Notes: generated by a model not told the origin, from the sequence alone. Positions 15,175 through 58,888 are shown, counted from the stretch's first letter. The stretch is DNA of 64,000 nucleotides from an uncultured Bacilli bacterium (GCA_934725985.1 CAKVCX010000001.1:365910-429909), one strand, 5' to 3'. A program made the numbers and translations.

Positions 15175-15228
15175 GGAACTATTTTACCAAAGTATAGAAA
15201 CTATTTGAGGTGGTATAATAAATTCGTT

Positions 15229-16893: not shown

Positions 16894-16906
16894 ATTCATA
16901 CTCTCC

Positions 16907-41479: not shown

Positions 41480-43588
41480 TTAATCGAAATAAGAAGAGGG
41501 AGTTGTTAATTTATTATTTTTATTTGTAAGAGTAAATAGAACACCTTTTGTAGAAGAACCACCATAGTAATTCTTATTCTCTCCAACGGATAATTTCCAT
41601 TCGCCAGTAGGATCGACATAGAAAAGATAACCCATATTCTCGTCTTGTTCTTCCGTCAATGTCCAACCTAGCGAAACTAGAAGTTCCTTATATTTATTAA
41701 TATAGGAATCCCTTTGTTCGTTCGTTTCAAATTCATTAGTCCTAAAAGCAACGTATTTAGAATAACTAGAATCCATAGTTCCTGAAGCATCTTTCCACCT
41801 TGCCCAAGCAACAGCATAATCTTTATAACCAGTGTTGGTCGGGTAAAGATATGGAACAACATTATCTACTCCCCATTCTTTTAGGGAAGCAAGCAGGGTT
41901 TCTGGGTATTCAGTTGGCTCAGTTTGGTCTACGATAGAAGACCAATCATAATTCAAAGCAGTAGTTCCGATTTTTGAAAACTCGCCAGAAAATTCAATCG
42001 TATCGTTTAAAGAGGAGGATGTTAGTTGGCCTTTCATGCTTGCAAGATGCCCGCCACTTAAAGTAAGGCTTACCTCTCCATTTACGGAATAATAATAAGC
42101 ATATCTAGGCAAACTAAAGCAATACGAAAGAAGTGAACCCGTATGGTCTCCACGTGATTTATAAACCCCATTATTTGCCGGGCCAAATACTTCCACGGCG
42201 AAATCGAATGTCGGATAGCGATTAATAGAGTCCCAAGAAGCAACATAATTCTTGGTTTTCGTTAAAGTGCCTGTAGTATCATCGTAAGTATAAGTAAAAT
42301 AACCAGTTCCGTCTTTATGAGCCCCATCATGAGCCAGGATTTTTCCATTTGAATCCACAATTTTTTCTTCGATGGTATCATCAGTATATACCATTGTATA
42401 AGTGGTCTTTCCATCATCCCCATCAATAGAATATGTAGCAGTATAATTTTTAGAAGCGGCAATTTCTTCCCTTGCCGTTTCTAAATCATCATGATAAGTT
42501 TCATGAACATACGGCTTAATATGGTCAATTTTTGCAGTACCAATTTCAGATATTGTGCCTTCCACTACTTGACCACCCTTATTTGCAACACCATCTTTTC
42601 CAAACGGGTCAGTAACAAAATAAATACCTAAAGAATCCCCATTAACTGTTATTGCAAATTCATCAGGGGTTATATCTTGAAGAACTAAAGAACAAGCTAA
42701 ATATGTTGTAGCCCAAAGGCTATTCCCAACATAGGAATAAGTTTTTCCTCCATCAAAGCTTTCAAAATCGGTAGCAGTAACCAAAGGTTCCATATCGGTG
42801 TTTTCTTCATATTTAAATAAATTTTCATAATAAGAATTCACCCATTTATATTCATCACCATCGTCATTAAATAAAGTAGCTTTTCCAATTTGGTTATCTT
42901 TATTTAAATATTCGGTAGCTAAACGTACACCGTTACGAACATATTTTCTTTCATATGTAACTTTTTGTGTTTCATGGTCTTTGACAGTAATTTGATAAGC
43001 ATCCGTATTATGATAGCTATCCATGTCATCGACTTCTTCATAAATGGTTGTGATATCAGATTGCTCGAAAAGGGTTGGATTAAGCTCTCTATCATAGTCA
43101 TATAGAGTTTGGGTCAATTCAACTTTCATTCCACCCGTTAGTTTATCAAACACCTCGCTAGACAAAGCGGTTCCATGGGCAATATTAAATGTTTTTGAAA
43201 CAATTACATCTTCTTCGCCTTCTAAATGAGCGGAAATAGTTGCTTCACCCTCGCTTACGGCGGTTAAAAGGGCCTCATTACTTATCCCTTCCATTTTAGA
43301 AGCACGGATAACGTTTGGGTCCGAGGATTGAAAAACAACATTTCCCGTAACGCCTTCTTTAAGAATGGCGTAAATGGAACGGCTTTGATTTAAATGTAAG
43401 TCACCATTCATTGCCAAAGTAAATTTGGCATTTTCTGGGGTAACCTCTTTAGTAGAACTAGATGAGGTTACTTCTTCTGAGGTTTTTTCTGTCGTGGAAT
43501 CTGCCGATTCGCTTGCATTTCCTCCGCTAGAAGCGCAAGAGCCAAGCAACAACGCGGCTGTTAGTATTAATATTTTCCTTTGTTTCAT
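41480..43588 (-). CDS. large surface lipoprotein (Ig-like/BIG domain-containing)
   Basis: Lipobox LLLGSCASS, S/T-rich linker, then ~650 aa Y/G/T/D-rich beta-rich extracellular region. Confidence 0.5.
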   Translation of the reverse strand: MKQRKILILTAALLLGSCASSGGNASESADSTTEKTSEEVTSSSSTKEVTPENAKFTLAMNGDLHLNQSRSIYAILKEGVTGNVVFQSSDPNVIRASKMEGISNEALLTAVSEGEATISAHLEGEEDVIVSKTFNIAHGTALSSEVFDKLTGGMKVELTQTLYDYDRELNPTLFEQSDITTIYEEVDDMDSYHNTDAYQITVKDHETQKVTYERKYVRNGVRLATEYLNKDNQIGKATLFNDDGDEYKWVNSYYENLFKYEENTDMEPLVTATDFESFDGGKTYSYVGNSLWATTYLACSLVLQDITPDEFAITVNGDSLGIYFVTDPFGKDGVANKGGQVVEGTISEIGTAKIDHIKPYVHETYHDDLETAREEIAASKNYTATYSIDGDDGKTTYTMVYTDDTIEEKIVDSNGKILAHDGAHKDGTGYFTYTYDDTTGTLTKTKNYVASWDSINRYPTFDFAVEVFGPANNGVYKSRGDHTGSLLSYCFSLPRYAYYYSVNGEVSLTLSGGHLASMKGQLTSSSLNDTIEFSGEFSKIGTTALNYDWSSIVDQTEPTEYPETLLASLKEWGVDNVVPYLYPTNTGYKDYAVAWARWKDASGTMDSSYSKYVAFRTNEFETNEQRDSYINKYKELLVSLGWTLTEEQDENMGYLFYVDPTGEWKLSVGENKNYYGGSSTKGVLFTLTNKNNKLTTPSSYFD

Positions 43589-44016
43589 TGCATTTCCCTT
43601 CCTTAAATATGCGTTAATTTAAAAGGGGGCGAAAAATTTTCAACTGTTTTTCTACTAATTTACTTTTTTGTTTGTTATTTGAAAAAAGATTGGCCGATAT
43701 TCTTATTTCATTCATTTATCTATCAATAACAAAAAATGGTTTCTTCTTTTAACATTTTGTAATTTTTCTAATTTCATTAATCAGCAAAGCCAAGTAATAC
43801 AAATTCATTTTTATGATGAAAGAAAAAAACAAAATAAAGTAACATTGGGGTTTTTAAACAAAAAATCATTAAAAAATTGCTAATTTTAAAATCTAATTGT
43901 TTAATTCTTTTTTTAATTAGAAAAGGGGAGGATTTTATTTATTTATTGATGCGATTTTGTTAGGATTATATGGATTTTAACTAGGATATAAATATCCAAG
44001 GAAAGGACTTTCGTTC

Positions 44017-44784
44017 ATGAATAACGAAAAAGAGCCACATATTATTGCCGTCTCAGGCAAGGGAGGGGTAGGCAAGACTTCAATCGCCGCGACGATTGTA
44101 AAGCTTTTGGTTCAAAATTACCCCGATAAAAAAATACTTGCGATAGATGCCGATCCAGCGGTTGGCCTATCCACCGCTTTAGGGATAGAGGCAAATAAAA
44201 CAATCGATGACGTTAGAAAAGAAGCCATAAAAGCTTCAGAAGATGGAAAAAATGCCGTTGTTGAAGTCTTAGGCAATGCCGAATACTCAATAGAGGAAGC
44301 CATAGTTAGCAAAAACGGTTTCTCCTTTATGGCCATTGGACGTCCGGAAGCAAGTGGCTGTTATTGCAAAATAAATACCTACCTAAAGGAAGTAATTTCC
44401 TCTATTTCTTCTTATTATGATTATGTCGTAATAGATGGAGAAGCCGGCATTGAGCAAATCAATCGCCGCGTCATGGAAAAAGTAACAGATCTTTTGCTAA
44501 TAACCGACCAAAGCCAAAAAGGAAGACAAGTTGTCAAAACAATAAAAGGAGTTGCCGACAATCTAGTTATGTATAAACAAATAGGTATCATAGCTAACCG
44601 CCTTTCTCCCTTAGCAATGAAAGAAAATTTAAACGTAGATAACATACCCGTATTAGCAAAAATCCCAATGGATGAAGAATTAGCTAATTATGATATGAAT
44701 GGAGATAACGTTTTCTTCTTATCCAATGATGCGCCCATTGTAAAAGGCGTAAATGAAGCCTTAAAAAAGATTCATATATTATAA
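44017..44784 (+). CDS. CooC/AcsF-type MinD-family P-loop ATPase (metal-cluster maturation factor-like)
   Basis: Deviant Walker A AVSGKGGVGKTS and a CxC motif (SGCYCK), characteristic of the CooC nickel-insertion ATPase family. Confidence 0.6.
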   Translation: MNNEKEPHIIAVSGKGGVGKTSIAATIVKLLVQNYPDKKILAIDADPAVGLSTALGIEANKTIDDVRKEAIKASEDGKNAVVEVLGNAEYSIEEAIVSKNGFSFMAIGRPEASGCYCKINTYLKEVISSISSYYDYVVIDGEAGIEQINRRVMEKVTDLLLITDQSQKGRQVVKTIKGVADNLVMYKQIGIIANRLSPLAMKENLNVDNIPVLAKIPMDEELANYDMNGDNVFFLSNDAPIVKGVNEALKKIHIL

Positions 44785-44797
44785 AAAGGATGGCTAT

Positions 44798-45994
44798 ATG
44801 AGAGATTTAAAGCATTTATATTATTTTGAAAAATTACTTGAAAACTCCTATAACGATTTAATCGGTGAAGCTCAAAGCGAAGGAAGAAAAGCCATAGGCC
44901 ACGTTTGTTATCAAATCCCTGAACCATTGCTAAATCTTCCAGGCATATTCTCAGTCCGTTTAAGGGCCCCACGAACAGGTAGTATGGAAATGGGCAGCTA
45001 TTACCTTTCGCCAATCTTTTGCGAAGCTTGTAGAGCCATTCTAGAAAGGGCTTTAGAAGGAGGGTTCAATTATCTAGATGCCATAATAGCACCAGAAGCC
45101 TGTGCCATGATGAATAGATGCGTAGAAAACATCGAACATTTAAATTGCTGCACGAAGCCTCATTTCTTTGCCTCTTATGTCGATGTCCCGATGAAAAGCG
45201 ATGAATCAACCCTAAAGCATTATGTTCTTCAAATGAAAGAACATGTCTTAAAGCCATTACACGAAAATTTAGGGATAGATGTCTCCGATCAAGCCATAAG
45301 AAAGGCAGTAGAAGAACAAAACAAGATTTCCAAACTCATTACCGAAATAGGCGATTTTAGAAAAGAAGAAAGACCCCGTATCACCGGTTATGAATTTGCC
45401 GTTTTAACTCTAGCCACCTATTGTTGCCCAAAAGATAAGCTAATAACAAAGCTAGAAGAAACCTTAGAAGAAATAAAAAATAGGGTTCCAGAAGAAAAAG
45501 GAGCATATCGTTGTAGAGTTGCAATGGTTGGCTCAGAAATTGATGACCCCCAACTAATTAAACTAGCTGAAGAATGCGGCCTTATAGTTGTTGCCGATCG
45601 TTATTGCTTTGGCTCTTTACCAGGTAGGCAAGTAATCGAATTAAACGAAAACGAAGATGCCTTGACTCAAGTTTGCTCCTATTATATGCGTTCAGGCCAA
45701 TGCCCACGTTTCTTAACTACAGAAAAAGTAAACGAAAGGCATGCCTATATCGATAAAATAGGAAAAGAGTACCATGTAGATAGCCTAATAATAGAACAAA
45801 TAAAATTCTGCGATTACTGGGGCTATGGCCGGGCTTTTATGAATGCAGTCATGCAAAACCAATACGGATATAAAACCCTTTCTATCGATCGTCCATATAA
45901 TGTAGGACAATCCGGTCAATTAAGAACCCGTATCCAAGCTTTTATTGAAGCGGTCGAAATCAAAAAGATTCAAGAAGAAAAGGAGGCAAAATAA
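44798..45994 (+). CDS. 2-hydroxyacyl-CoA dehydratase/benzoyl-CoA reductase BcrC-BadD-HgdB family subunit
   Basis: HgdB-like fold with conserved Cys (CEACR, CAMMNRC, YCCP, RYCFGS); 13-nt gap to the upstream CooC-like gene. Confidence 0.65.
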   Translation: MRDLKHLYYFEKLLENSYNDLIGEAQSEGRKAIGHVCYQIPEPLLNLPGIFSVRLRAPRTGSMEMGSYYLSPIFCEACRAILERALEGGFNYLDAIIAPEACAMMNRCVENIEHLNCCTKPHFFASYVDVPMKSDESTLKHYVLQMKEHVLKPLHENLGIDVSDQAIRKAVEEQNKISKLITEIGDFRKEERPRITGYEFAVLTLATYCCPKDKLITKLEETLEEIKNRVPEEKGAYRCRVAMVGSEIDDPQLIKLAEECGLIVVADRYCFGSLPGRQVIELNENEDALTQVCSYYMRSGQCPRFLTTEKVNERHAYIDKIGKEYHVDSLIIEQIKFCDYWGYGRAFMNAVMQNQYGYKTLSIDRPYNVGQSGQLRTRIQAFIEAVEIKKIQEEKEAK

Positions 45995-47547
45995 TGGCAA
46001 ACCATATTGGAAACGAAAAACTTGGCAAATTCTATAAGCCAGGAAAGAAGACTGCAACCCGTCGTGAATGGAGAGGGTTTAAAGATACCATGTACGACTT
46101 TTCTCGCTGGTTGCATAACCTTTTTGTCATGGCAAAATTCATAATGAAGCCAACAACCTTAAAAGCCATGTTCACTTATCGTTGGTTTGGCAACTATCTA
46201 GCCGCCTTTGACTATATAGACCGTCATATGGAAGGGGTACGTGGCAAGCAGCTCCGCATAGGACATATTGAATATGATTCAATAGTCGAACACCTTACCC
46301 AAACCATGGATACCTTGTTTAAATGTGACAAGCGTATCGGCAATAAGCATGGTAAATATGACGAATTAAACAAAAAACTAGTCATAATGGACGAGAACGG
46401 AATGATGGTTATAGCTACAGGCTTCCCGAATTTAAAGTTTCTATCAAAGGAAGTCCCGGCCATTTATACGGGTTCTACAATTGCCCAAGATGGCGTCCTT
46501 CACTACATAGAAACGGCTGAAGAATTCCAAATCCCTGGCGATGTCTGCCCTATGCCTTGCGCCGAATTAGGATGCGCAATAGATGAAGATTATCCTATTT
46601 GCGGGGTATGCGCTATCCATTGCAACACTACTTGCGACGGTTCGTTAATGGGAAACCAAATTGAGGATAGACACGATGATTTACCTTCCTTTACAATGGC
46701 CGCCCCCATGCGTCACCAACAAAAATCAGTCTTGGCTTATTCACGTGATCAAATCGTAGAAGCCATTCATTTCATTGAAAAACACACAGGTGAAAAATGG
46801 GATTGGGACGCCTTTGCTAGAAACATGAAAACCTATAATGCCCAAAACGCCTTGTTTGAAGAATGGATGGAAATAAACAAAACAGATTATCCCCAAGTCG
46901 TCAACAATAACGTCATGCTTTATCGCGATGCCGAATACATGGTTATCTCTGGGCGTGATCCCTCTTTCTTAAAGTTCGATAAAAAGATTACCGAACTAGC
47001 CAAAGAAGGGTATAAAGAAAAGAATTTGCCTTGCAAAGAAATAAGACATAGGGCATTAGTATGGGGCGTGCACGCCCAATACTATACCGCTTTCAATCAA
47101 TGGCTTTCCAATTGCTGGGGAATTGTTTGCCTATGCGACATGCTATCGTTTACCTTAACAAAGCCAATAAATTATGAAGACCATGAACAAGCTTTATTGG
47201 ATTTAGGTGAATACAATATGAACATGATTATGCGTAACCATTCAAACGGAGGTTATGAAGTCGGCGTTGAACAGCTTTGGCAGTATTGCGAAGAATATCA
47301 TGCCGACATGGTCATAATGTATGAACATATAGGTTGTAAATCCATGGCAGGATATCATGGCTTATTAGAAGAGGAAGGAAGGAAAAGAGGCATACATATA
47401 GTTTGGGTCTACCATGCCTTAATGAATCCTACAAAGGCTACTAGAAAAGACATGAGAGAAGATGTTAACCGTTACATGAAAACAGTCTTAAGGGAAGAAC
47501 CTCTAGACCCTACATTAGTTAATTTTGACGATGCCCAGCGTTGGTAA
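45994..47547 (+). CDS. 2-hydroxyacyl-CoA dehydratase HgdA-like / double-cubane-cluster-protein-like subunit
   Basis: 517 aa HgdA/DCCP-like with Cys-rich stretch CPMPCAELGCAID…CGVCAIHCNTTCDG; TAATG overlap with the preceding gene. Confidence 0.65.
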   Translation: MANHIGNEKLGKFYKPGKKTATRREWRGFKDTMYDFSRWLHNLFVMAKFIMKPTTLKAMFTYRWFGNYLAAFDYIDRHMEGVRGKQLRIGHIEYDSIVEHLTQTMDTLFKCDKRIGNKHGKYDELNKKLVIMDENGMMVIATGFPNLKFLSKEVPAIYTGSTIAQDGVLHYIETAEEFQIPGDVCPMPCAELGCAIDEDYPICGVCAIHCNTTCDGSLMGNQIEDRHDDLPSFTMAAPMRHQQKSVLAYSRDQIVEAIHFIEKHTGEKWDWDAFARNMKTYNAQNALFEEWMEINKTDYPQVVNNNVMLYRDAEYMVISGRDPSFLKFDKKITELAKEGYKEKNLPCKEIRHRALVWGVHAQYYTAFNQWLSNCWGIVCLCDMLSFTLTKPINYEDHEQALLDLGEYNMNMIMRNHSNGGYEVGVEQLWQYCEEYHADMVIMYEHIGCKSMAGYHGLLEEEGRKRGIHIVWVYHALMNPTKATRKDMREDVNRYMKTVLREEPLDPTLVNFDDAQRW

Positions 47548-47565
47548 AAAGAAAGGAAAAAGAAT

Positions 47566-48369
47566 ATGAAATACTTTGGTGGATGTGATGCCGGATCGAC
47601 ATATACAAAATGTGTCATCCTTGACGAAAATGGAAAAATGGTCGCTAATGTGACATTAAAATCGAAAATAAATGCAGTCGAAAGCGCTCGGCTTGCCTTA
47701 GAAGAAGCCATAAAACAAGTAGAAGGCCTTAACGAAACAAAAGACTTGGCCTATCTAATCGGCACAGGTTATGGAAGAAACAAAGTGCCTTTTGCCGATG
47801 AAAACATTTCTGAAATTTCTTGCCATGCGATGGGGGTCCATCTAGCCGATCCTAGCATTACTTCCATTATCGATATCGGTGGGCAGGATATTAAAGGCAT
47901 TGCCATCGATCCAAAAGATGGAACCGTGCAAAATTTTGCCATGAATGATAAATGCTCCGCCGGAACCGGACGTTTCTTTGAGGCCATGGCACGCAGTTTT
48001 GAAATGGATTTGGATGATTTTTGTTCTCTTTCTTTAAAAGCTAATAACATCATTCCCATTACTTCTCAATGCACTGTCTTTGCCGAATCCGAAGTCATCT
48101 CCTTAGTTGGCGAAGGAAAGCCAATGGAAGATATAGCAGCAGGAATAATGACCTCAGTTGCTAAAAGATGCTTCGTCATGGCTAAAAAAGCCGGGGCCAC
48201 AGATTCGATTACTTTAACAGGTGGATGTGCTAAAAACCTTGGTTTAAAACAAGCCATTGAAAAAGTACTTCACTTAAAAGTAAAAGACTTGCCTATCGAC
48301 CCTCAATTAATGGGAGCTTTAGGCGCGGCAGAATACGCTAGAAGAAAAGGAATGAAAGAAGGAAGATAA
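47566..48369 (+). CDS. BadF/BadG/BcrA/BcrD-type ATPase, acyl-CoA dehydratase activase (HgdC-like)
   Basis: N-terminal GGCDAGSTYTKCVILDENG (ASKHA fold), two conserved Cys for the bridging [4Fe-4S], ~260 aa size. Confidence 0.8.
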   Translation: MKYFGGCDAGSTYTKCVILDENGKMVANVTLKSKINAVESARLALEEAIKQVEGLNETKDLAYLIGTGYGRNKVPFADENISEISCHAMGVHLADPSITSIIDIGGQDIKGIAIDPKDGTVQNFAMNDKCSAGTGRFFEAMARSFEMDLDDFCSLSLKANNIIPITSQCTVFAESEVISLVGEGKPMEDIAAGIMTSVAKRCFVMAKKAGATDSITLTGGCAKNLGLKQAIEKVLHLKVKDLPIDPQLMGALGAAEYARRKGMKEGR

Positions 48370-48370
48370 T

Positions 48371-48550
48371 ATGGAATGGTGGATAATATTATTAATCGTT
48401 CTTGGTTCAATCCTAGCTTTCATCCTATTTCTATTCATTGTTTTATTTACAGTTTATTTCTTTAATCTTGACTCCAAACTTCTAGCCCATATCCAAAAAT
48501 GGATAAATAAAAAATACGATAAAAGAAAGAGAAACCGTCATTTAGAATAA
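48371..48550 (+). CDS. small single-pass membrane protein (59 aa)
   Basis: MEWWIILLIVLGSILAFILFLFIVLF… hydrophobic helix plus basic tail; starts 2 nt after the hgdC-like stop (just under the 60-aa ORF-track threshold). Confidence 0.35.
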   Translation: MEWWIILLIVLGSILAFILFLFIVLFTVYFFNLDSKLLAHIQKWINKKYDKRKRNRHLE

Positions 48551-48551
48551 T

Positions 48552-49253
48552 ATGAATCTATATGATTCCATCATTAAAAAAGCATTAACTCTTTTTAATG
48601 AGAAAGAGTTAATTTCATTTCCTTTGGAAAGCAAGTTCCCCATGGAAAAAAAGAAAGGATTTATCTTTTCTGATGATACCAAAGTCGAACTTGGTTCAAA
48701 TGATAAATCCGCTTATTTTATGGGTTATACTACAAATGAAAAACTAATAAACAAGGACGAAATTCTTTTACTTGGAAAAGATTTAAACTTGCTTGATAAA
48801 CAATCTTGTTTTGCCCACCTTTCATTCTTCTTGCTTGAAGACAAGAGAAAAGAAGACCAGCAAACGTATAGATTGCTAAGAGACTTAGAATATTCTCGTT
48901 ACAACGTATTCCCAAATGGATATATGTTAAGGATAAATACAAATTCTTTAAAAGAAGGGGCACGTGTATCAAAAAAAGCCATAGAAAGTGGCATTTCATT
49001 TAAAGATATAGGGATGGCATTTTTAAATTCCTATAAGAAAGAAAAATCATTAAGATACGTAAAACAAGTATTCGTTACTGACCCAACCTTTGATTTTTCA
49101 TCATTGCTAGAGTTGCAAAAAGAAGTCGAGGCCATAACAATTGCTTTTGACCATATATTGAAAAATTTAAAAATGGATTGTAAAACATGTTCCTTTAAAG
49201 AAATCTGCGATACGGTAGAAGGAATGAAAGATTTACATAAAAACAAAAATTAG
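48552..49253 (+). CDS. hypothetical protein (233 aa) with C-terminal CxxC…C cluster
   Basis: Co-oriented and abutting the small TM ORF; no recognisable motif except MDCKTCSFKEIC. Confidence 0.35.
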   Translation: MNLYDSIIKKALTLFNEKELISFPLESKFPMEKKKGFIFSDDTKVELGSNDKSAYFMGYTTNEKLINKDEILLLGKDLNLLDKQSCFAHLSFFLLEDKRKEDQQTYRLLRDLEYSRYNVFPNGYMLRINTNSLKEGARVSKKAIESGISFKDIGMAFLNSYKKEKSLRYVKQVFVTDPTFDFSSLLELQKEVEAITIAFDHILKNLKMDCKTCSFKEICDTVEGMKDLHKNKN

Positions 49254-49341
49254 AATTATTCATACTTCTATTTTTATTAAAAAAATAACGCTTAGCTCAT
49301 ATGGGTGTTACAATAAAGAAGAAAAAATAGAGGTGTACAAA

Positions 49342-50811
49342 ATGGAATATGCAATTTTATCTTTATCCATATTAATGGTTTTATTTTCGTTCATTATTTT
49401 ATTATTCGTTATAAAAAATAGAAAAAAGGGTGATTTAAGCCTAGGGGAAAACGAAATAAAGAAAATAAAAGAAAGCGTAGCTGAGTCCATCAACACATTA
49501 AGCGTCTCTATAAGCTCTTTAGTTGCAGAGAAAAACTCTACCCTAATGGATAATTTAGATAAAAAGGTTGATGAATCTATCACAATAGAAAAAGACTTAG
49601 TCAAAGAATTAAATGCATTTAAGGAGCAAACAACTAACCTCCTTAACCAAGGCAATGAGAAAACAAATAAAATTCTTTCCGATTTCGCAAAGCAACATAC
49701 CTTAGAAGCAAATAAAGAAAAAGAAGAGATAATGAATAAGCTCTCTTTGGAAATGAAAGAATTTAACGAAACAGTAAAGAAAACAGTAAATGAATTCAAT
49801 GGATCCATAAAAGAAAAATTAGAAGACTTTAAAAAGAATACCAATGAATCGATAAAAATATTAAGCGAGGCCGTTTTAAGAAACTTATCCGAAATAAGGG
49901 AAGACAATAACAAAAAATTAGAGCAAATAAACCAATCGGTAAACGAAAAGCTTCAAAAGACTTTGGAAGAAAAATTAAAAGATTCCTTTAAAAGCGTTGT
50001 CGAAGGCATAGGCGATGTTAACAAAGCAGTCGGCGAAATCAAAGGCCTTGCCACAGATGTCGGTTCTTTAAAAAATGTCTTAACCAATGTCAAAACAAAA
50101 GGCATCATGGGTGAAGTAATCCTAGGCAACATCATAAGAGAATTCTTAACTACGGGGCAATATGAAGAAAACGTTGTCACAAAAAAGAATTCAAACGAAC
50201 GAGTAGAGTTTGCAATCAAATTGCCCGGAAATAAGGATGAGACAATACTCTTGCCCGTAGATTCAAAATTCCCATACGAAGCCTATTCAAAAATCCATGA
50301 ATCTTCGAACATGGATGAAATAAACGAAGCAAAAAAGCTTTTAAGAAGCAATTTATTAAAATACGCAAAAGACGTAAGCGAGAAATATATAGATGTCCCC
50401 AACACAACAAATTTTGCCGTCATATTCTTGCCATTAGAAGGCTTATATCTAGAAGCCCTTAACATGGGATTATTTGAAGAAATACAAGAAAAATATAACG
50501 TTAATTTAACCGGCCCAACCACTTTTACCGCATTCATCAATTCGCTTAACATGGGATTTAAGTCGTTAATGATTCAAAAGAAAAGCGCGGATGTCTTTAA
50601 GCTACTAGGGGCGGTAAAAACAGAATTTGGAAAATTTGCCGAAGCCTTAGAAAAAACGCAGAAGAAAGTCAATGCAGCAGCAGACGAATTAGATACTTTA
50701 GTAGGCACAAGAACCAAAATGATGAATTCGAAATTAAAGAATATAGACGCATTAGACGAAGCTAGCACAAAGTTATTGTTAGAAGGAAAGGAAAAACAAA
50801 ACGAGAATTAA
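49342..50811 (+). CDS. rmuC: DNA recombination protein RmuC
   Basis: N-terminal TM helix, long coiled-coil, C-terminal RmuC nuclease-like domain (VEFAIKLPGNKDETILLPVDSKFPYEAY). Start at ATG 49342 (GAGGTG RBS). Confidence 0.75.
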   Translation: MEYAILSLSILMVLFSFIILLFVIKNRKKGDLSLGENEIKKIKESVAESINTLSVSISSLVAEKNSTLMDNLDKKVDESITIEKDLVKELNAFKEQTTNLLNQGNEKTNKILSDFAKQHTLEANKEKEEIMNKLSLEMKEFNETVKKTVNEFNGSIKEKLEDFKKNTNESIKILSEAVLRNLSEIREDNNKKLEQINQSVNEKLQKTLEEKLKDSFKSVVEGIGDVNKAVGEIKGLATDVGSLKNVLTNVKTKGIMGEVILGNIIREFLTTGQYEENVVTKKNSNERVEFAIKLPGNKDETILLPVDSKFPYEAYSKIHESSNMDEINEAKKLLRSNLLKYAKDVSEKYIDVPNTTNFAVIFLPLEGLYLEALNMGLFEEIQEKYNVNLTGPTTFTAFINSLNMGFKSLMIQKKSADVFKLLGAVKTEFGKFAEALEKTQKKVNAAADELDTLVGTRTKMMNSKLKNIDALDEASTKLLLEGKEKQNEN

Positions 50812-50870: not shown

Positions 50871-53861
50871 TTAGCTTTCTAATCCAAATCCAAACCAGTC
50901 AAAACTGTTTCTATACTGTCTACGGACTTCCACATCTTTTAAATCTAGTTTGCTTCCTAGCGATTCATTAACAAAAAATTCATGGATATAGTTATTTAAA
51001 ACATCTTCCTGAAAAACTTTATACTTGTTTAAAATCTGGAAATCCTTCTTAGTAATGCCCACCGCTTCCAAAAACACATCAGGATCCGCGTTATTAAATA
51101 TTTCCATAAATGTAGTCTCGCGATATACGCTTATGTAGAGAAATTCAAACAGTCGAGCGAGCAAATGCTTCAAAACGTTATCCGCATCCTCAATTGTTTC
51201 TCCGTTTTTAGGGTCAACAGCAGGAATCAGGTTTGTTTTAACAGCTCTTCTAAACGAATCACGATACCATCTTCTATAAAGCATACCTCTATACTTAATA
51301 GGTATATTCTGCTGTGCATTCAGATATGTCTTAACAAAATTCTCAATAGCAACTTTGGTCCTATTTGTATACTTAATGTCTTCCCCAAAATTCTTTTTTA
51401 TTTCATCAATAAATTTAACTCCATCCGTATAGCCGCATTGTTCTTTCTTAATAGGGGCATTCACTCCGGATTGATACCCTTTTTTAAAACCATTTGTATA
51501 CCAAGTCTGTTCGGCTGGCTCTAATCCTTTTGGGCAAAATTCCTTAATATAATCAGATAGGGCTGTCTCGAATTCAATCTGTACTTGATTATCGTCATAA
51601 TCGACATATTTTTTGTAATCTAGTTGCCCTAATTCGTAACCTTTGTCTCTACCTTCTTTTGCAATCTTAGTATCGAAACCACTTTCAGGTTTTGCAGGAA
51701 CTGTTGCAGTCTTAGTCTTTCCAAATTTAGCGTGAGCAAAAACCCTTTTAATAATGTCGCTAACCTCTTTATCGTTTAACATTTCCGCCATCGTTTCTTC
51801 ATCAAGCATTCTGGTTGTTTTAGTTGTGTCTACAATTTTTTTAGACAAAGGAATTCCGCTTGAATCGCCGTATTGAGCAAGTTCATAGAAAACTTGTTCT
51901 GATATTGGATCAGACATATCGCCATTTATGAAAATGGGCATATATTTAACAATTAATTTTGCGATTTCCAATTTGGTCGTTTGCTCATTCTCTGATTGTT
52001 CAGCGTATTTTAAAAGCAAAGCGCTAGCCCTATCTATATTAAAATCATATACGTACCCATCTTTTTTCTTAATTTTGCCATTTTCAACATATGGGGTTTG
52101 AATCCTAAAAATAGCTTGAAAATATTGTTCTGGGCTAGCTAAATCCTTAAGAACGAATACGCTGGACCATTTCTTAACAGTAACGCCAATAGTAAGTTTG
52201 TTGACTGTTATCGCAATAGACCCAAGCTTATTGGTGTTCTCAGATTCGGTGATACCATTCATTAAATACTCGAAAGCGCAATTTCCTGCCCCGACACCAT
52301 CTTTGGAAAGATTAATGATTTGGTATCTAGAAAAATAAGAATCCAACTTCAAAAGGTTTTCCATTGCCTTACACGACTTAACCGTTGGCATAAGCCACAA
52401 TGTATGGATGTTATTTTGAAGCATTTGGGGATTAGAATAAGGGAAGTTATCGCCAAAAGTAGAACGACCCTTTATAATTTCAAGCCATTTCTTTATTTCA
52501 CCCTCGTAAATGAACGTGCAGGGTTCATTCGGATTGTTCTCTTGCCTTGTCTCGAAGAATTTGTTCAAAGAGAAATATTTTTTTGTTAGCAATCTGTCCT
52601 CAGAAAAGACCGAGGCGGTAAGGTTGCCGAAAAGCCTGGACATGTTGTATCCGAATATCTTCATGTCTGGGAAAGAGGCGTAGCTTGGATTCACGACCGA
52701 GAAATCGCCCTTGTCGCTATTGGGGTATTTGTTCCTTTGCTCATCAAAATAAGAGTATGTAAATGAGGACTGGTCCGTGAATTCGCCTCTAGCCAATGCT
52801 TTAAATGGAGTTCCTGACAAGCAAATTGTTTGCTTAGTCTTTATATTAAATTTTTTAATAACGTCGCCAGCTTTTTTCAATTGATCCTGATAATTACTAT
52901 CAAGATCTTCACTTTTTTCTTCCTTTACTTTTAAAGTACCTTGGGTTCTTTGATTCCACGCGCCAAAATGGTATTCATCAAGTATTACCACGTCCCAATC
53001 TATGTCTTGCAATTGTTGGATTTTACTTTTAACATCTGTGTCCTTTTCTTTGCCTAAATAATTCTGTAAGGATAAGAAAAGAACATAAGGGTCATTAATA
53101 GAAGTCAGCTTAAAATTTTTTCTTCTTAAATTATCATCAGTGAAATATCTATAATTTTTCTTTATGTGTCTTAGATCCTCGCGCCAAGAAGATTCAACAG
53201 CGGGAATAAAAGTAAGAATCAATATTCTTTCTAAATTATGGTCTTCGCAATATTTGTATGTCGTGAAAGATTTTCCAAATCTCATTTTGCAGTTCAAAAG
53301 AAATCTTCCTCTAGGATTCCTAGAAAAATAATAGTTCATGGCGTCAATACAACCCTGTTGTTCTTTTCTAGGGATATAGATTTCCTTGTTTTCATCCGTA
53401 TGCCTCAAGGAATTGAAGATTTGGATGAGTTCATCCGTTGGGACGTTTGTGAACCATTCCTGTTCTTTTTCAACTATCCCCGCATTTGACTTTTTAATTT
53501 CATTATGAACGGAATAGTCCTTGAAGGAGTCGTTTTTTGCATCTAGGCAAATTCCCCAATAAGTGACTTCCCTTTCTAATCCGTATTTTTGATATTGTTC
53601 ATCGGTAAGAGCTAATTCATGTCGCTGATCGTGAATTCTAGATTTGATTGCATGCCAAAAAGTCTCACCAATTTTGCATTTTGTCATCCCCACTTTGATC
53701 CCGTGCGTTTGAAACCAGGGCAGCAAATACATATAGATGAGAATCAGTGAACCATCGGTATTGTTCTTATCATCCAAACTAAAAATAGTTTTATTTTCTT
53801 GGTATTGAATGGCATCCGTTTTATTAATGTCAGGCGATTTAGTAACTAAGATATCTTCCAT
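50871..53861 (-). CDS. GIY-YIG/T5orf172-like nuclease domain fused to SNF2-like SF2 helicase (996 aa), third gene of MTase operon
   Basis: N-terminal ~100 aa LILIYMYLLPWFQTHGIKVGMTKCKIGETFWHAIKSRIHDQRHE (GIY…YIG-like, Arg, Glu); Walker A KMRFGKSFT; motif II ILDEYHFGAW (DExH); motif III CLSGTPF (SNF2-like TGTP); motif VI-like QAIFRIQTP; ~350 aa C-terminal domain of unknown function. Confidence 0.55.
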   Translation of the reverse strand: MEDILVTKSPDINKTDAIQYQENKTIFSLDDKNNTDGSLILIYMYLLPWFQTHGIKVGMTKCKIGETFWHAIKSRIHDQRHELALTDEQYQKYGLEREVTYWGICLDAKNDSFKDYSVHNEIKKSNAGIVEKEQEWFTNVPTDELIQIFNSLRHTDENKEIYIPRKEQQGCIDAMNYYFSRNPRGRFLLNCKMRFGKSFTTYKYCEDHNLERILILTFIPAVESSWREDLRHIKKNYRYFTDDNLRRKNFKLTSINDPYVLFLSLQNYLGKEKDTDVKSKIQQLQDIDWDVVILDEYHFGAWNQRTQGTLKVKEEKSEDLDSNYQDQLKKAGDVIKKFNIKTKQTICLSGTPFKALARGEFTDQSSFTYSYFDEQRNKYPNSDKGDFSVVNPSYASFPDMKIFGYNMSRLFGNLTASVFSEDRLLTKKYFSLNKFFETRQENNPNEPCTFIYEGEIKKWLEIIKGRSTFGDNFPYSNPQMLQNNIHTLWLMPTVKSCKAMENLLKLDSYFSRYQIINLSKDGVGAGNCAFEYLMNGITESENTNKLGSIAITVNKLTIGVTVKKWSSVFVLKDLASPEQYFQAIFRIQTPYVENGKIKKKDGYVYDFNIDRASALLLKYAEQSENEQTTKLEIAKLIVKYMPIFINGDMSDPISEQVFYELAQYGDSSGIPLSKKIVDTTKTTRMLDEETMAEMLNDKEVSDIIKRVFAHAKFGKTKTATVPAKPESGFDTKIAKEGRDKGYELGQLDYKKYVDYDDNQVQIEFETALSDYIKEFCPKGLEPAEQTWYTNGFKKGYQSGVNAPIKKEQCGYTDGVKFIDEIKKNFGEDIKYTNRTKVAIENFVKTYLNAQQNIPIKYRGMLYRRWYRDSFRRAVKTNLIPAVDPKNGETIEDADNVLKHLLARLFEFLYISVYRETTFMEIFNNADPDVFLEAVGITKKDFQILNKYKVFQEDVLNNYIHEFFVNESLGSKLDLKDVEVRRQYRNSFDWFGFGLES

Positions 53862-53862
53862 G

Positions 53863-55596
53863 TTACTTCATCTCCTTGACATTACTTTCTATGAATTCAC
53901 GCTCTTCTGGCGAAAAGCCAAACAAATCAAAGAGTTCCTTATCTGTCCATTTTTTATCAAAATTGAGCAAAGGTATATAACCATAAACGCTTTGTGATGC
54001 GTTTTGATCTAATTTTCGAATTCCTAAAATTGCCCTAAAGAATTTAGTTTTAGCGTATTCCCAGCAATTTTTTGCTTCTTTTTCAGTCTTAAAAGGTCCA
54101 AATACAACATAGGTTTCGGTACATAATTCATTGGGGCCGCCTAATATCGGGTCGGATAACGTTTCTCCAAAAATTCCGCTCCCTTGATTTCTAGCAACGA
54201 AAAGTTTATAGCCCGGCAACAAATCTCTTTTGGGGAGAGGATAGTTTGATGGGATATATCTTATAACTCGTTTTAAATGCTCATCTAAACCATGAACAAT
54301 AAGGCCTTGGTTAACTTTTCCTTTGCTCATTTGGGGAAGGGCGTACTTACCAGGGTCTTTGAAGATGTCGCCGCGTAAGCCATATGGCTTAAGCGGCGAC
54401 ACGATTTTCGAAAATGAGCCACCTTTGTATGCTGTTACCTTTTTATAAATACTTACTAATCTACTATCCCTAATAAACACGTCAGTGTTGCCTTCTTTAA
54501 GGAATCTTTCAGATTCTATTTCTTTGTCAACGTTGTGCTGAATTATTTTACATTTTCCTTCTTCATCACGATTCCAAAGGAAAAAGCAGACACCGCCCTT
54601 TATATCGTTATTTGAAAAACACATTTTCCCATCAGGAAAATCATTCAAGGAACGAATGTGTTTATCCGAAATCATTAAGCTTCTAAATTCATCAAGCCCC
54701 TTTCCGCCGGTCATCCATCTTGAAGGCATAATCATGCTTATATATTTAGGTTTTAAGGAAATTGCCTGTTGAACGAATAGCTGATAAATAGGCCTTGCGC
54801 TCGCTTGAGCGCCACCATCACTCAATTGATAAGGTGGATTGCCAATTATGATATCGAATTTCATTTCCCTATTGCCTCCAAAGAATCTATCTTGCAAATG
54901 CCTTAGCAATTCATCGCTCTTAAAATGGATGAATTCATAAGCATATGTTTCACGTTGATTAACATCGTTATAAATTGATGCGCCGTTAATCCCACAATAC
55001 TTGCACTTATATTTTTTCTTTTCTTCATCGGAGCAAGAATTGGGCATCAATCTTCCTTTTTCATCTACAAACGTATGATTGATATTGGGGGTTTTGATGT
55101 TACCCTCTTCATCCTCGAACCAACTTCCATTGCCAATAGCATAACCGTTAATATAATGCCCATCGTTAGCTTTGATTCCATCGCATTTTCTATTTGCTTG
55201 GGAACAATAATAAACCGTTCTTCTAGCAACATTGGAAGTAAATCTGGTCTGACCAATCGAATAAATCATGTTTCGCAGAATGTGTTTCCTTCTTTGTTCG
55301 GTGTTGGGAATGATTTCTTTAAGACCATCATCCAATCTTATTGCAATCTCCCTTTCGAAGATTCCATTTTTTGTAGCTGGATTCAGCCATTTGTAATTAG
55401 GATTGTGCCAGACTTCCTCAGGAAGAGAATCCAAAATTATGTCGCATGTTTTTCTTGGAGTAAAAACCTCATCGTTGCCTACGTTTGTAATCGTTTCAAG
55501 AATATCAAAATTTTCTATATATTCATTCGCGGATTCCACTGCAGTTTTGTATTTATCTTCAGCTTCTAAAGCATCATTTTTCATCATCATAACCAC
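53863..55596 (-). CDS. gamma-class N6-adenine DNA methyltransferase (Eco57I/TaqI-like)
   Basis: Motif X GNDEVFTPRK, motif I LNPATKNG, motif IV FDIIIGNPPYQ in gamma-class order; 577 aa. Confidence 0.8.
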   Translation of the reverse strand: MVMMMKNDALEAEDKYKTAVESANEYIENFDILETITNVGNDEVFTPRKTCDIILDSLPEEVWHNPNYKWLNPATKNGIFEREIAIRLDDGLKEIIPNTEQRRKHILRNMIYSIGQTRFTSNVARRTVYYCSQANRKCDGIKANDGHYINGYAIGNGSWFEDEEGNIKTPNINHTFVDEKGRLMPNSCSDEEKKKYKCKYCGINGASIYNDVNQRETYAYEFIHFKSDELLRHLQDRFFGGNREMKFDIIIGNPPYQLSDGGAQASARPIYQLFVQQAISLKPKYISMIMPSRWMTGGKGLDEFRSLMISDKHIRSLNDFPDGKMCFSNNDIKGGVCFFLWNRDEEGKCKIIQHNVDKEIESERFLKEGNTDVFIRDSRLVSIYKKVTAYKGGSFSKIVSPLKPYGLRGDIFKDPGKYALPQMSKGKVNQGLIVHGLDEHLKRVIRYIPSNYPLPKRDLLPGYKLFVARNQGSGIFGETLSDPILGGPNELCTETYVVFGPFKTEKEAKNCWEYAKTKFFRAILGIRKLDQNASQSVYGYIPLLNFDKKWTDKELFDLFGFSPEEREFIESNVKEMK

Positions 55597-56569
55597 TATT
55601 CCCCCACATTAATGATACAAACTTGATTTCCTGATCCTTCTCCCAATCCATAATGACACATCTCTTTCCGTTATGCTTTTTGGGATCATTATTTTTACAG
55701 CCCGGACAAATATCAAACTTAGGCTCTTCTAATTCACCAAACAAGCTCAGCTGAACTGCTTTTTTTACTTCGTTATGGCATGAAAAAGGGACTACGTATT
55801 TTAATCCGTCCATTTGCCAAATATTCCAACTAATAATTGTTGCTACATTAATCAGCAATTCTTTATCCGGCAATTTATCAAATCTATCAAGATAATAATC
55901 GATAAAATCAAAAAATATGTTCTCGCGTGCTATTAAAAGATTATCCCCCTGGAATTCGTAACCATAAATTGACTTTAAGGCCTTCATTGCATATTCAAGC
56001 CATTCGTCATCACTAGAAGCGTTCTCCTTTATAACCCTAAATTTCCTATCTAAAAGACCAACTCTATTTTTAATTTCTATTATTTGGCCGTTTACTGCAT
56101 CATATCTTGATACTAAATATGGAGCCTCCCCACAGCAAACCTCTAAGCGGATATCGTTTACATAATCAATCCAAGTTTTACCACAATCAAAAATTACTTT
56201 TTCAGTTGGCGTCCAAGTATTATCTAAATTCTCTATATTAAACTTTCCTTTATTGCCAAACCATGCATCATCGACTAAATTATTTTGCTTATTCACAAGC
56301 CAAGATGGAGTAAAAACCTCAGCGTTATCTTTGCTTCTTTTTACTTGTTCAGCCTTGCTCTTTTCTATTCTTGGCCTGATAGCACGTATTCCGCTAAGCA
56401 CGTGCATTGGTTTGATTTCATTAGTAGGCGAATAACCTTTGCCTTTATTTTTGTAATGATCTGTAGCCCAGATAATGTTTTTGTTCGTCGTTCTATCTAA
56501 TAGAAGAGCGGAAAGGATTTCAGGGAAAGAAGAATACACTTCATTTAAATTTATTTCACTTTCAGCCAT
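55574..56569 (-). CDS. methyltransferase-like N-terminal fragment-type protein with C-terminal zinc ribbon (first gene of operon)
   Basis: AEVFTPSWLV (motif X-like) and a possible degenerate motif I (LEVCCGEAPY) but no NPPY; C-terminal CHNEV…CPGCKNND CxxC-type ribbon; 23-nt overlap with the MTase gene. Confidence 0.4.
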   Translation of the reverse strand: MAESEINLNEVYSSFPEILSALLLDRTTNKNIIWATDHYKNKGKGYSPTNEIKPMHVLSGIRAIRPRIEKSKAEQVKRSKDNAEVFTPSWLVNKQNNLVDDAWFGNKGKFNIENLDNTWTPTEKVIFDCGKTWIDYVNDIRLEVCCGEAPYLVSRYDAVNGQIIEIKNRVGLLDRKFRVIKENASSDDEWLEYAMKALKSIYGYEFQGDNLLIARENIFFDFIDYYLDRFDKLPDKELLINVATIISWNIWQMDGLKYVVPFSCHNEVKKAVQLSLFGELEEPKFDICPGCKNNDPKKHNGKRCVIMDWEKDQEIKFVSLMWGNSGYDDEK

Positions 56570-56782: not shown

Positions 56783-58888
56783 TCAAATATGGAAAAGAAT
56801 ATCTCCATACGTAGGAACTGGCCATAAAGACTTAGGGACCAATAATTCAGCCTCGTCTATAGGAGCACGTAATTCTTTCATGGCTTTTTTAAGTTTTGTG
56901 CTAGCAAAGAACGCCTTTTCTTCCTCACCATTTATTTGACTATCTTCCTCAATTAAAGAATCTAGTTTTTCTAACGCAAGGAAGGAACGGTTTAAGACGT
57001 CTATTAATTTTTCTTTTGTCTTGAAAACGGGAAGGCAAGAAGAACCAATTCCTTTTTCTTCTTCTAAAATATTATTTAAGGCATTATGAATGCAAGGAAG
57101 GAATAGCTTATGTGCCATTCTAGACATGGTTTTGGCCTCGATTATGGCTTTGTTATGATAATCTTGATATTTAATATTTACTCTAGATAGAATTTCTTTT
57201 TCTTTAAATACACCACTGCCAATCAACATTTCGAAATTTTCTTTTCTAGTATAGGCTTTAATGGCCTCAGGAGTCGTCCTTAGATTCATTAAGCCTCTTT
57301 TAGCAGCTTCCTTTTCCCATTCCTTGCTATAACCATCCCCGTTAAAGACAATACGTTTATGTTCTTTTATTGTCTTTTTAATCCATTCTAAAGATGTTTG
57401 CTCTTTATCAACACTTTTTTCTAACATAGCAGAGAGTTCATTTAACCCTTCGGATAAAACAACGTTTAAAAAAGTATTAGGTTCGGCAATATTTTGCTCA
57501 CTACCAACCATTCTAAATTCAAACCTATTGCCCGTAAAGGCAAAAGGAGAAGTTCTATTCCTGTCCATATCGTCCTTAGGAAAAGAAGGTAACGTCTTGC
57601 TTCCATTTATAAAACTTTTAATATTTTCGCTAGTTTTTAAATCATTATTAAGAACTTCTTCTATAAGACTTGTTAAGGCTTCGCCTAAATAAATACTTAA
57701 TATAGCCGGAGGGGCTTCGTTCGCGCCTAGCCTAAAGTCATTGCCATAACTAGCAACCGATTCTCTTAGTAAATCAGAATGCAAATCAACGCCCCGCAAA
57801 ATAGAAGAAAGGAAAATAAGGAATCTTAGATTGCTTTTTTTATCTTTGCCTGGTGAAAATAAGTTAATCCCAGTGTCTGTTCCGACTGACCAATTGTTAT
57901 GCTTACCCGAACCATTTATTCCTTCAAATGGTTTTTCAGCAAGTAGGCAAATCATGCCATGGTGCTTAGCAATACGTTTTAATAAACGCATGACCAATTG
58001 ATTTTGATCGCAAGATAAACTAGAAGGGGCATAAATACAAGCCAGTTCATGTTGGCTTGGTGCAACTTCGTTATGCTCGGTCTTAGCTGGGATCCCAAGT
58101 TTCCATAAAGCATCATTAACCTCTTGCATAAAAGAAGAAATTTTTTCTCTTATTGGTCCAAAATAATGATCATCCAATTCTTGTCCTTTTGGAGATGACG
58201 CCCCAAAAAGAGTACGACCCGTGTATACAATATCTTTTCTTTTTAAGTAATCTTGGCTTTCGATTAAAAAATATTCCTGTTCAGCTCCGGCATAACTATA
58301 TACGTGTTTAACATCGTTATATCCTAATAAATGTAAAAGTCTTATTACTGACTCATTTAAATAATCTTCGCTCCTTAGCAATGGAGTTTTATCATCTAAA
58401 GCCTCGCCATTATACGAACAAAAAGCCGTCGGTATATATAAAATTGCACCATATTCATCATCTAAAACAAAAGCAGGGCTTGTTGCATCCCAAACCGTAT
58501 ATCCTCTTGCTTCAAAAGTTGCACGTAATCCACCAGAAGGAAAACTAGAAGCATCCGGTTCCCCCTTTATTAATTCTTTGCCGCTAAAATCAAAGGAAAT
58601 CTTCCCGTCTTCATTAGGTTTGCCGATAAAGGCATCATGTTTTTCGGCAGTCAAGCCATTAAGAGGCTGAAACCAATGGGTATAATGGGTCGCCCCTTTA
58701 TCAAGCGCCCAATTTAATAAACCCTTGGCTACTTCATCGGCAAAAGAAGGATCGAGTTCTTTTCTTTCCTTTGTAGCCTCATTTAAGGCATTATAGGCTT
58801 CTATGCTTAAATACTTTCTTTTTTCTTCATCATTAAAAACGTTAATTCCAAAATTGTTTTGGAAATAGTTAGTTTCTTTTTTGCCCAT
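56783..58888 (-). CDS. glnN: glutamine synthetase type III
   Basis: 701 aa, GSIII-size; N-terminal GSIII-specific region and GS catalytic-domain motifs (e.g. NGSGKHNNWS). Confidence 0.8.
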   Translation of the reverse strand: MGKKETNYFQNNFGINVFNDEEKRKYLSIEAYNALNEATKERKELDPSFADEVAKGLLNWALDKGATHYTHWFQPLNGLTAEKHDAFIGKPNEDGKISFDFSGKELIKGEPDASSFPSGGLRATFEARGYTVWDATSPAFVLDDEYGAILYIPTAFCSYNGEALDDKTPLLRSEDYLNESVIRLLHLLGYNDVKHVYSYAGAEQEYFLIESQDYLKRKDIVYTGRTLFGASSPKGQELDDHYFGPIREKISSFMQEVNDALWKLGIPAKTEHNEVAPSQHELACIYAPSSLSCDQNQLVMRLLKRIAKHHGMICLLAEKPFEGINGSGKHNNWSVGTDTGINLFSPGKDKKSNLRFLIFLSSILRGVDLHSDLLRESVASYGNDFRLGANEAPPAILSIYLGEALTSLIEEVLNNDLKTSENIKSFINGSKTLPSFPKDDMDRNRTSPFAFTGNRFEFRMVGSEQNIAEPNTFLNVVLSEGLNELSAMLEKSVDKEQTSLEWIKKTIKEHKRIVFNGDGYSKEWEKEAAKRGLMNLRTTPEAIKAYTRKENFEMLIGSGVFKEKEILSRVNIKYQDYHNKAIIEAKTMSRMAHKLFLPCIHNALNNILEEEKGIGSSCLPVFKTKEKLIDVLNRSFLALEKLDSLIEEDSQINGEEEKAFFASTKLKKAMKELRAPIDEAELLVPKSLWPVPTYGDILFHI

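Follow-up and report, generated by a model that had tools for sequence, protein, structure and literature searches.

The known "archerase" enzymes, namely the class I benzoyl-CoA reductases (BCR), the 2-hydroxyacyl-CoA dehydratases (HAD) and the double-cubane protein DCCP, catalyse reactions that are among the most reducing in biology, and need only A/B subunits and an ATP-dependent activase for them. In the Bzd and Mbd reductases (BzdNOPQ, MbdONQP; PDB 8s02, 9g87), a heterodimeric HGD-D core is served by ASKHA-type ATPases encoded by two genes; the beta subunit holds an [8Fe-9S] double cubane through six Cys residues (Cys36/73/100/263/293/327 in BzdN), where it acts as an electron store and relay, and the alpha subunit holds a [4Fe-4S] cluster through three (PMC11971306). 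DCCP of Carboxydothermus hydrogenoformans, which receives electrons from the single-gene activase DCCP-R (CHY_0487/0488; PDB 6eno, 7yyl), is a homodimer with a seven-Cys motif in each chain (CX19CX18-19CX29CX166-170CX32-34CX32C); it was produced in the holo form in Escherichia coli, and no CooC-like or acetyl-CoA synthase-like partner was needed (PMC7317905). Here we analyse 64,000 nucleotides from an uncultured Bacilli bacterium (GCA_934725985.1, CAKVCX010000001.1:365910-429909; hereafter the window, with positions counted from its first letter), in which six co-directional open reading frames (ORFs) on the + strand (44017-49253) combine a core of this kind with three additional products: a CooC-type ATPase, a stand-alone homologue of the middle (A2) domain of acetyl-CoA synthase (ACS), and a small membrane peptide. 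None of these three is mentioned in the BCR paper cited above (PMC11971306). The core enzyme superfamily is known, and what is new is the obligatory CooC-like/ACS-A2-like pair together with the membrane peptide; the literature that we searched contained no paper describing this CooC-like/HGD-D/ACS-A2-like combination, and the homologues carry generic database names only.

A previous reading of the window, made from the sequence alone (hereafter the sequence-only reading), had proposed these six ORFs, a 13-nt gap between the ATPase and B genes, and the coupling of the B and A genes through TAATG, and all of these were found on the + strand. The spacers are, from 5' to 3', 13 nt, a 1-nt overlap (the TAATG, preceded by AAGGAGG), 18 nt, 1 nt and 1 nt, and such tight spacing points to an operon-like layout. 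The first gene (44017-44784) encodes a P-loop ATPase of 255 aa, which falls into the CbiA/MinD-type class of Pfam and NCBIfam and carries the deviant Walker A motif of the MinD class (xKGGxGK[ST]; G-K-G-G-V-G-K-T, residues 13-21). NCBIfam cannot be used to decide on CooC membership, since CooC1 itself matches MinD-type models only and no CooC-specific model is available. A PDB search was more discriminating: the top match was CooC1 of C. hydrogenoformans (3kje; 60.8 bits, E 1.5e-15), as compared with 35.3 bits for the best MinD. The CxC of the ATPase (G-C115-Y-C117-K) lies at the position equivalent to that of CooC1, SGCYCK being aligned to SQCYCR. Both Cys residues are conserved in 100% of 69 distinct orthologues from related loci, GCYC is invariant in CooC1 and in ATPase variants of only 42-49% identity, and the Walker A motif is likewise invariant in an alignment with CooC1 and the distant variants. 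The ATPase nevertheless differs from CooC1 in being only ~26% identical to it, and from the CooC/AcsF proteins in that its subfamily possesses strongly conserved motifs of its own (RPExxGCYCKIN and IDGEAGIEQINRRVMEKV). Its homologues are abundant, the best 120 clusters all being at least 62% identical, and close homologues that have been named in other databases are called "CO dehydrogenase maturation factor". By these comparisons the ATPase belongs to the CooC type rather than among ordinary MinD/ParA proteins, which bears out what the sequence-only reading had maintained. Unlike CooC1, it is not linked to a CO dehydrogenase (CODH) or a complete ACS: no cooS and no complete acsB are encoded in the 64-kb window or around 85 related loci, of which the 9-kb flanks were surveyed, and the ATPase gene is linked to HGD-D and ACS-A2-like genes instead.

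The last gene of the operon (48552-49253), which the sequence-only reading had left as a Cys-containing unknown of 233 aa, turned out to encode the ACS homologue. The protein itself gives a weak Pfam match to PF03598, the family of CdhC (CO dehydrogenase/acetyl-CoA synthase, beta subunit), and the profile of its family covers residues 298-472 of the Moorella ACS, that is, the middle domain, with the 15 best matches all being ACS or CdhC chains. Moreover, a distant member of the family taken alone matches ACS (E 1e-5) and the CdhC models of NCBIfam (E 1e-8 to 1e-10). On this profile evidence, the gene 6 product is a homologue of the A2 domain and is assigned the A2 fold. An exhaustive profile search returned 656 representatives at 50% identity, nearly all of them stand-alone proteins of 230-250 aa. 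The protein ends in three Cys residues (C210-x2-C213-x5-C219) that are shared without exception by 59 orthologues and all the distant variants, and this CxxCx5C tail is located ~30 residues past the end of the A2 domain, roughly at the position of the first A-cluster ligands of ACS. In ACS, A2 is the acetyl-CoA-binding domain (bioRxiv 10.1101/2024.08.05.606187). The A2-like protein and ACS have an RVSK motif in common, and the distant variants keep the Trp of a REWSR motif, which is aligned to the adenine-stacking Trp of ACS; the subfamily of the window differs from ACS in having Gly136 there. It also differs from AcsB and CdhC in that it stands alone (~235 aa, with neither an A1 domain nor a fourth [4Fe-4S] Cys) and is always linked to HGD-D enzymes, not to CODH or a corrinoid protein.

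The gene order of the operon is widely conserved. When species-representative genomes were scanned for relatives of the alpha subunit, at least 552 came to light, from which 80 loci were kept, and gene order was counted in 82 non-redundant loci, 78 of which had room upstream and 60 downstream. The CooC-like gene adjoins the B gene in 70 of the former, belonging to several phyla, so the adjacency is not a peculiarity of the window genome. Downstream, the activase was found in 59 of 60 loci, the membrane peptide at the same position in 59 (by BLAST) and the 233-aa A2-like protein in 58. The six-gene order is thus present in ~90% of testable loci and occurs in RF39 Bacilli, Lachnospiraceae, Oscillospiraceae and spirochaetes; look-ups of two ATPase homologues, from Lachnospiraceae and Treponemataceae, returned the identical order. 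Exceptions to it comprise a few lineages within the Lachnospiraceae (L036, L040/41, L055, L061/66/74) and L033, a Treponemataceae metagenome-assembled genome (MAG). In L033, a 66-aa ORF (697-897) occupies the place of the CooC-like gene and resembles the CooC-like N-terminus over its first ~20 residues; it may be a truncated gene or a pseudogene.

The association between the ATPase and the A2-like protein extends well beyond this gene order. In the distant locus L086, a TetR gene is followed by CooC, B, A, activase, a 52-aa peptide and A2-like genes and then by polyferredoxin and AFOR genes. In L087, which has a Gram-negative context, the order is B, A, activase, activase, A2-like, CooC (with a 4-nt overlap) and GntR/FCD. 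A contig from JGI shows activase, activase, A2-like, CooC, HGD-D, polyferredoxin, HGD-D and activase. In L088 (235-1161) and L089 (216-1142), a natural fusion protein of 308 aa joins the A2-like part to a 2x[4Fe-4S] ferredoxin domain at the C-terminus, and the CooC-like gene comes directly after. The longest arrangement is that of L093, where a sigma-54 regulator and an unknown gene precede B, A, activase, activase, A2-like, CooC, SDR, CoA ligase, acyl-CoA dehydrogenase, AtuA, GMC oxidoreductase and a second CoA ligase, which looks like an unfamiliar anaerobic pathway of CoA-ester degradation; within this locus (3314-18542), an uncharacterised 499-aa protein with no Pfam match is encoded just upstream of B. 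The A2-like and CooC-like genes are immediate and often overlapping neighbours in L087, L088/L089, L093 and the JGI contig. Hence, they constitute a conserved pair and a constant accessory of a broad BCR-like clade, and the pair, an ATPase encoded beside an ACS-derived protein or in one operon with it, resembles AcsF, the maturase, and its partner ACS. The ferredoxin fusion, in turn, argues for a redox-active centre on the three-Cys tail.

The remaining genes encode the archerase itself. The beta-type subunit (gene 2, 44798-45994, 398 aa; PF06050, E 1e-79) matches, in order, BzdN (8s02_B, 80.5 bits), DCCP (6eno) and HadC in the PDB, and each of its residues C37, C75, C102, C270, C302 and C338 is aligned to one of the six BzdN ligands of the [8Fe-9S] cluster. 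They also match the seven-Cys motif of DCCP at six positions, the equivalent of Cys94 being missing, are conserved at 97-100% in 77 orthologues, and are retained in L086. The B subunit is therefore predicted to carry an [8Fe-9S] double cubane on these six residues, as opposed to the [4Fe-5S]-type site of HadC. The alpha-type, substrate-side subunit (gene 3, 45994-47547, 517 aa) consists of a helical N-terminal extension of ~170 aa followed by a PF06050 domain (from residue 170, E 5e-38). In profile alignments, its residues C185, C214 and C448 fall on the three [4Fe-4S] ligands of BzdO (Cys95/128/380), MbdO, HadB and DCCP, and they are invariant down to 18% identity, that is, throughout the distant clusters (18-28%). 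The AlphaFold2 (AF2) model of this subunit (pLDDT 77.5) is closest in fold to HadB, BzdO and MbdO, then to DCCP, and then to beta-type subunits. By ligand pattern, the core shows a BCR-like division of labour, with a predicted double cubane on beta and, on alpha, an open [4Fe-4S] cluster of the kind at which BzdO and HadB perform their chemistry, and the alignment-based count of Cys ligands that the sequence-only reading had suggested thus gives six for B and three for A.

The closest solved relatives of the two subunits, BzdN for B and MbdO for A, are BCR proteins, and the similarity to BCR clusters extends to the distant operon relatives with two ATPase subunits and with CoA-ligase and acyl-CoA-dehydrogenase neighbours. 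The window differs from the BCR systems in having one activase gene (its product presumably a homodimer) and no genes for CoA esters. The catalytic His131 of BzdO, three residues past the second cluster Cys, is replaced by an invariant Ser217. In common with DCCP, the window has a TTCDG ligand motif in alpha (TTCDGS) and a single-gene activase, and the DCCP model NF040772 ("double_cubane") is the top NCBIfam model for both HGD-D subunits (128 and 46 versus a cut-off of 350); unlike DCCP, the window places six ligands on B and only three on A. All NCBIfam equivalog scores of the two subunits are far under the cut-offs (TIGR03190, 81 versus 454; TIGR03191, 16 versus 449; HadB, 28.6 versus 750; HadC, 84.5 versus 700), which indicates a separate clade of the BCR-I/HAD/DCCP superfamily.

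The activase (gene 4, 47566-48369, 267 aa) is an ATP-dependent archerase of the HgdC/BcrAD type (PF01869, BcrAD_BadFG, E 3e-55; TIGR00241, 224 bits versus a cut-off of 125). Its C130 and C169 are conserved in 100% of 63 sequences and would hold the [4Fe-4S] cluster that bridges the dimer. It is by far the most conserved of the six proteins, with 75-90% identity across lineages where alpha shows ~50% and the A2-like protein ~35%. In about a dozen related MAGs (L016, L018, L019, L021-L029), the contig stops where the activase gene begins or just within its start, as if assembly had broken off at a sequence that several genomes share or that is repeated in one genome. The fifth gene (48371-48550) encodes a single-pass membrane peptide of 59 aa with a basic C-terminal tail, to which Pfam and NCBIfam assign no family; its conserved VYFFxLD motif is kept in the 52-aa peptide of L086.

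Taking these results together, we postulate, with moderate confidence, that the six genes encode one machine, in which an ATP-driven, very-low-potential iron-sulfur oxidoreductase of the BCR-I/HAD/DCCP type is combined with an accessory pair derived from CODH/ACS that includes a metal-loading role. In such a machine, electrons from reduced ferredoxin or flavodoxin would pass through the activase, at the expense of ATP, to the double cubane of B, then to the [4Fe-4S] cluster of A and finally to the substrate, which would be reduced or activated as a radical at the open alpha cluster. In other lineages, an IsrA-like NAD(P)H Fe-S flavoprotein, or AFOR and polyferredoxin, may donate the electrons. 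By analogy with CooC and CODH, and with AcsF and ACS, a dimer of the CooC-type ATPase would draw on ATP in loading or rebuilding a metal centre that is either carried by the three-Cys tail of the A2-like protein or built together with it. As this centre, nickel or an Fe-S cluster of a labile, site-differentiated kind would be most plausible. The A2-like protein would then act for the A/B core as an additional subunit with a redox or ligand-binding function, and the 59-aa peptide would probably tether the complex to the membrane. As regards the substrate, some of the distant members, those found in clusters with CoA ligases and acyl-CoA dehydrogenases, clearly act on CoA esters; in the window's subfamily, the CoA-stacking Trp has been lost and CoA genes are missing from the vicinity, so that its substrate may be a small molecule or a non-CoA compound.

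Several observations weigh against this proposal. CooC1 binds zinc as well, and the CxC of the ATPase could be meant for a different metal or a cluster. For the A2-like protein, the last 63 aa find no match in the PDB, and since this part alone shows no similarity to ACS, the correspondence of its CxxC with Cys506/509 of ACS is only positional. Furthermore, the protein lacks the A3 domain and the Cys-Gly-Cys nickel site of ACS and ends 14 residues after its third Cys, and three Cys residues do not suffice for a complete Ni-[4Fe-4S] site. That the six products associate physically is inferred from their synteny only, an adjacent CooC-like gene is missing in ~10% of loci, and the window contains no nickel transporter, NiCo riboswitch or NikR site. 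A version in which the CooC-like and A2-like proteins build and carry a novel, A-cluster-derived nickel-iron-sulfur centre, to act jointly with an ATP-driven electron pump of the BCR/DCCP type, is, in our estimate, a tentative and rather unlikely one.

It is similarly unlikely that a non-standard cluster of the A/B pair, built for example on extra Cys residues of alpha, receives nickel or a different heterometal straight from the CooC-like ATPase, with the 233-aa protein being incidental. This would agree with the position of the CooC-like gene immediately 5' of the B gene, with the fact that CooC-family proteins are known nickel insertases for Ni-Fe-S clusters, and with the composition of alpha in the window's subfamily, where C206, C210 and C374 are invariant and C432 is conserved at 96%, along with six invariant His residues. 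However, these four Cys are lost from the alpha subunits of L086 and L087, which retain the CooC-like gene at 18-28% alpha identity, and the AF2 model places C206 and C210 within a beta-strand. The extra residues can therefore not be the general reason for the CooC-like gene, and we rejected them as a general heterometal site; a heterometal on A/B is left with no specific support. The sequence-only reading had taken the dedicated ATPase as a sign that the A/B pair carries a non-standard cluster, either a double cubane or a heterometal. The ligands on B agree with the first part and the loss of the alpha Cys speaks against the second, and the double cubane alone gives no reason for a CooC protein, as this type of cluster is assembled without one when DCCP is made in E. 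coli (PMC7317905). Moreover, no feature of A/B follows the CooC-like gene nearly as closely as the A2-like gene does. Since the extra alpha Cys are specific to one subfamily, while the A2-like gene is paired with the CooC-like gene in the distant clusters, the A2-like protein is more likely than the A/B pair to be the client or partner of the ATPase.

A different role for the pair, which we consider doubtful, would be that of a working redox or energy-coupling module, with the A2-like protein as an Fe-S carrier or a substrate- or CoA-binding subunit, and the CxC ATPase as a NifH-like gate on the delivery of electrons or substrate to A/B, possibly with a cluster at its dimer interface. The characterised CxC members of this ATPase family, CooC and AcsF, insert metals and do not carry electrons (ref 87 in PMC10134865), and the operon already contains a dedicated ATP-driven electron injector, the activase. 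On the other side, the function of A2 in ACS is to bind CoA, the A2-like protein of L088/L089 is fused to a ferredoxin domain, and polyferredoxin genes lie close by in L086 and in the JGI contig. The ATPase also shows weak similarities to Fer4_NifH, BchL and CfbC.

Two further explanations are highly improbable. The name "CO dehydrogenase maturation factor" of close homologues would fit an ATPase that matures a conventional CODH/ACS encoded elsewhere in the genome, with its place in the operon being merely historical, but the window and the flanks surveyed above hold no cooS- or acsB-like gene, the linkage to HGD-D and A2-like genes is maintained across phyla, and the small RF39-type genomes to which the window appears to belong are, to our knowledge, devoid of the Wood-Ljungdahl pathway. 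Likewise, the public label "2-hydroxyacyl-CoA dehydratase family protein" would suit an ordinary dehydratase of amino-acid fermentation lying beside an unrelated MinD/ParA ATPase and a hypothetical gene, yet this is effectively refuted by the gene order kept across phyla, the invariant CxC with CooC1 as the closest structural relative, the six-Cys double-cubane site of beta, HadB and HadC scores far under cut-off, and the absence of CoA-transferase and acyl-CoA dehydrogenase genes from the window flanks of the operon; in rejecting a classical dehydratase and in noting the absence of these genes, the sequence-only reading was right.

The closest relatives of the window (alpha identity 86-94%) are uncultured "Bacillales/Christensenella UBA" and Candidatus Enteromonas MAGs, which we take to be RF39-type Bacilli with small genomes; one RF39-type genome (CP091723.1) measures ~1.65 Mb. 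RF39-like alpha subunits, 90-94% identical to that of the window, also occur in L007, L011, L012 and L031, which are filed as Prevotellaceae, Bacteroidales, Alistipes onderdonkii and Paludibacteraceae, and a Lachnospiraceae-like copy (alpha identity 51%) occurs in L065, filed as Alistipes communis. These loci with Bacteroidota labels most likely reflect bin contamination and not true hosts. Outside the RF39 type, 25 of 42 loci, mainly from Lachnospiraceae, encode a ~950-aa protein with Fer4, Fer4_20 and Pyr_redox_2 domains after the six genes (median gap 66 nt), followed by HypA in 23 loci and by a HypB-type GTPase in 15; a GntR/FCD regulator is present in 13 loci and, by neighbour clustering, lies upstream on the opposite strand. 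Examples of the ~950-aa protein and Hyp genes are found in L001 (13423-16777), L046 (12354-15458), L082 (15296-15727) and L064 (1872-2648). By domain composition, size and HypA/HypB context, the protein resembles IsrA. IsrA is a putative isoprene reductase of Acetobacterium wieringae with a HypA/HypB operon, which has been proposed, and not proven, to be a Ni-Fe-S enzyme, and the published analysis of its neighbourhood did not report HGD-D or CooC partners (PMC10134865). The IsrA-like, HypA, HypB and GntR/FCD genes occur neither in the window nor in any of the 10 RF39-type loci, and are lineage-specific additions, probably as electron donors or pathway partners; the IsrA-like unit is separate from the six genes and is replaced in other lineages by AFOR and polyferredoxin or by CoA-ester genes. 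We rejected HypA and HypB as a sign of nickel in the six-gene system, because they accompany the IsrA-like gene and are missing from the window. In the loci that bear IsrA and Hyp genes, two candidate metal-chaperone systems stand side by side.

Within the window, the operon is preceded by an AT-rich intergenic leader of 428 nt (43589-44016, + strand). No Rfam family, including the NiCo riboswitch, was matched in the whole window at the gathering score or in 43500-44100 at E<=1. In a consensus scan of 43400-49500 for promoters and terminators, matches were rarer than in shuffled sequences, and the leader gave no convincing promoter on the + strand. The flanks encode toxin-antitoxin proteins, AAA_14/DUF4143 ATPases, a lipoprotein, RmuC and a restriction-modification system. 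The predicted lipoprotein (702 aa, 41480-43588, - strand; signal LLGSCASS) is divergent from the operon, lies just upstream of it and matches only DUF7028, weakly. In eight related loci, a protein family with a median length of ~517 aa is encoded upstream of the operon, and its longest member (700 aa, L016 4012-6114) has no Pfam match. The G+C content is 0.38-0.44 at ~32-40 kb and 0.385-0.41 over the operon, as against 0.30-0.35 elsewhere in the window, and the sign of the GC skew reverses at about 28 kb. At ~32-40 kb, the high-GC genes encode AAA_14/DUF4143 ATPases, a Schlafen/AlbA_2 protein and an AbiEi antitoxin, with a RelB/YafQ pair after them (40.3-40.9 kb), and the high-GC stretch beside the operon looks like a defence or mobile island. 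Downstream, a restriction-modification-like block on the - strand (50871-56569) comprises a 996-aa ResIII-type helicase, a 577-aa methylase of the Eco57I family and a 331-aa protein with no Pfam match, whose coding sequences overlap or abut, and a type III glutamine synthetase (GSIII_N, Gln-synt_C) is encoded at 56783-58888 (- strand), ~7.5 kb downstream of the operon.

Our analysis corrects the generic labels "2-hydroxyacyl-CoA dehydratase family protein", "AAA family ATPase" and "hypothetical protein" under which these products are filed, and describes an archerase clade with two extra parts derived from CODH/ACS, which is present in at least 552 species-level genomes and in several cultured gut isolates; the cultured hosts of the operon include Faecalicatena faecalis, Dorea ammoniilytica and Laedolimicola intestinihominis. 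On a conservative reading, the operon is an uncharacterised enzyme system that has been retained by gut bacteria with reduced genomes (RF39). If the CooC-like/A2-like pair does install nickel or a special centre, this would be a new type of metalloenzyme and a new job for the CooC/AcsF family, and would link acetyl-CoA synthase in evolution with benzoyl-CoA reductase. Were the centre to be one of nickel, iron and sulfur, it would define a novel class of nickel enzymes, widespread in human-gut Firmicutes, RF39 Bacilli and spirochaetes and found in environmental anaerobes that degrade CoA esters as well.

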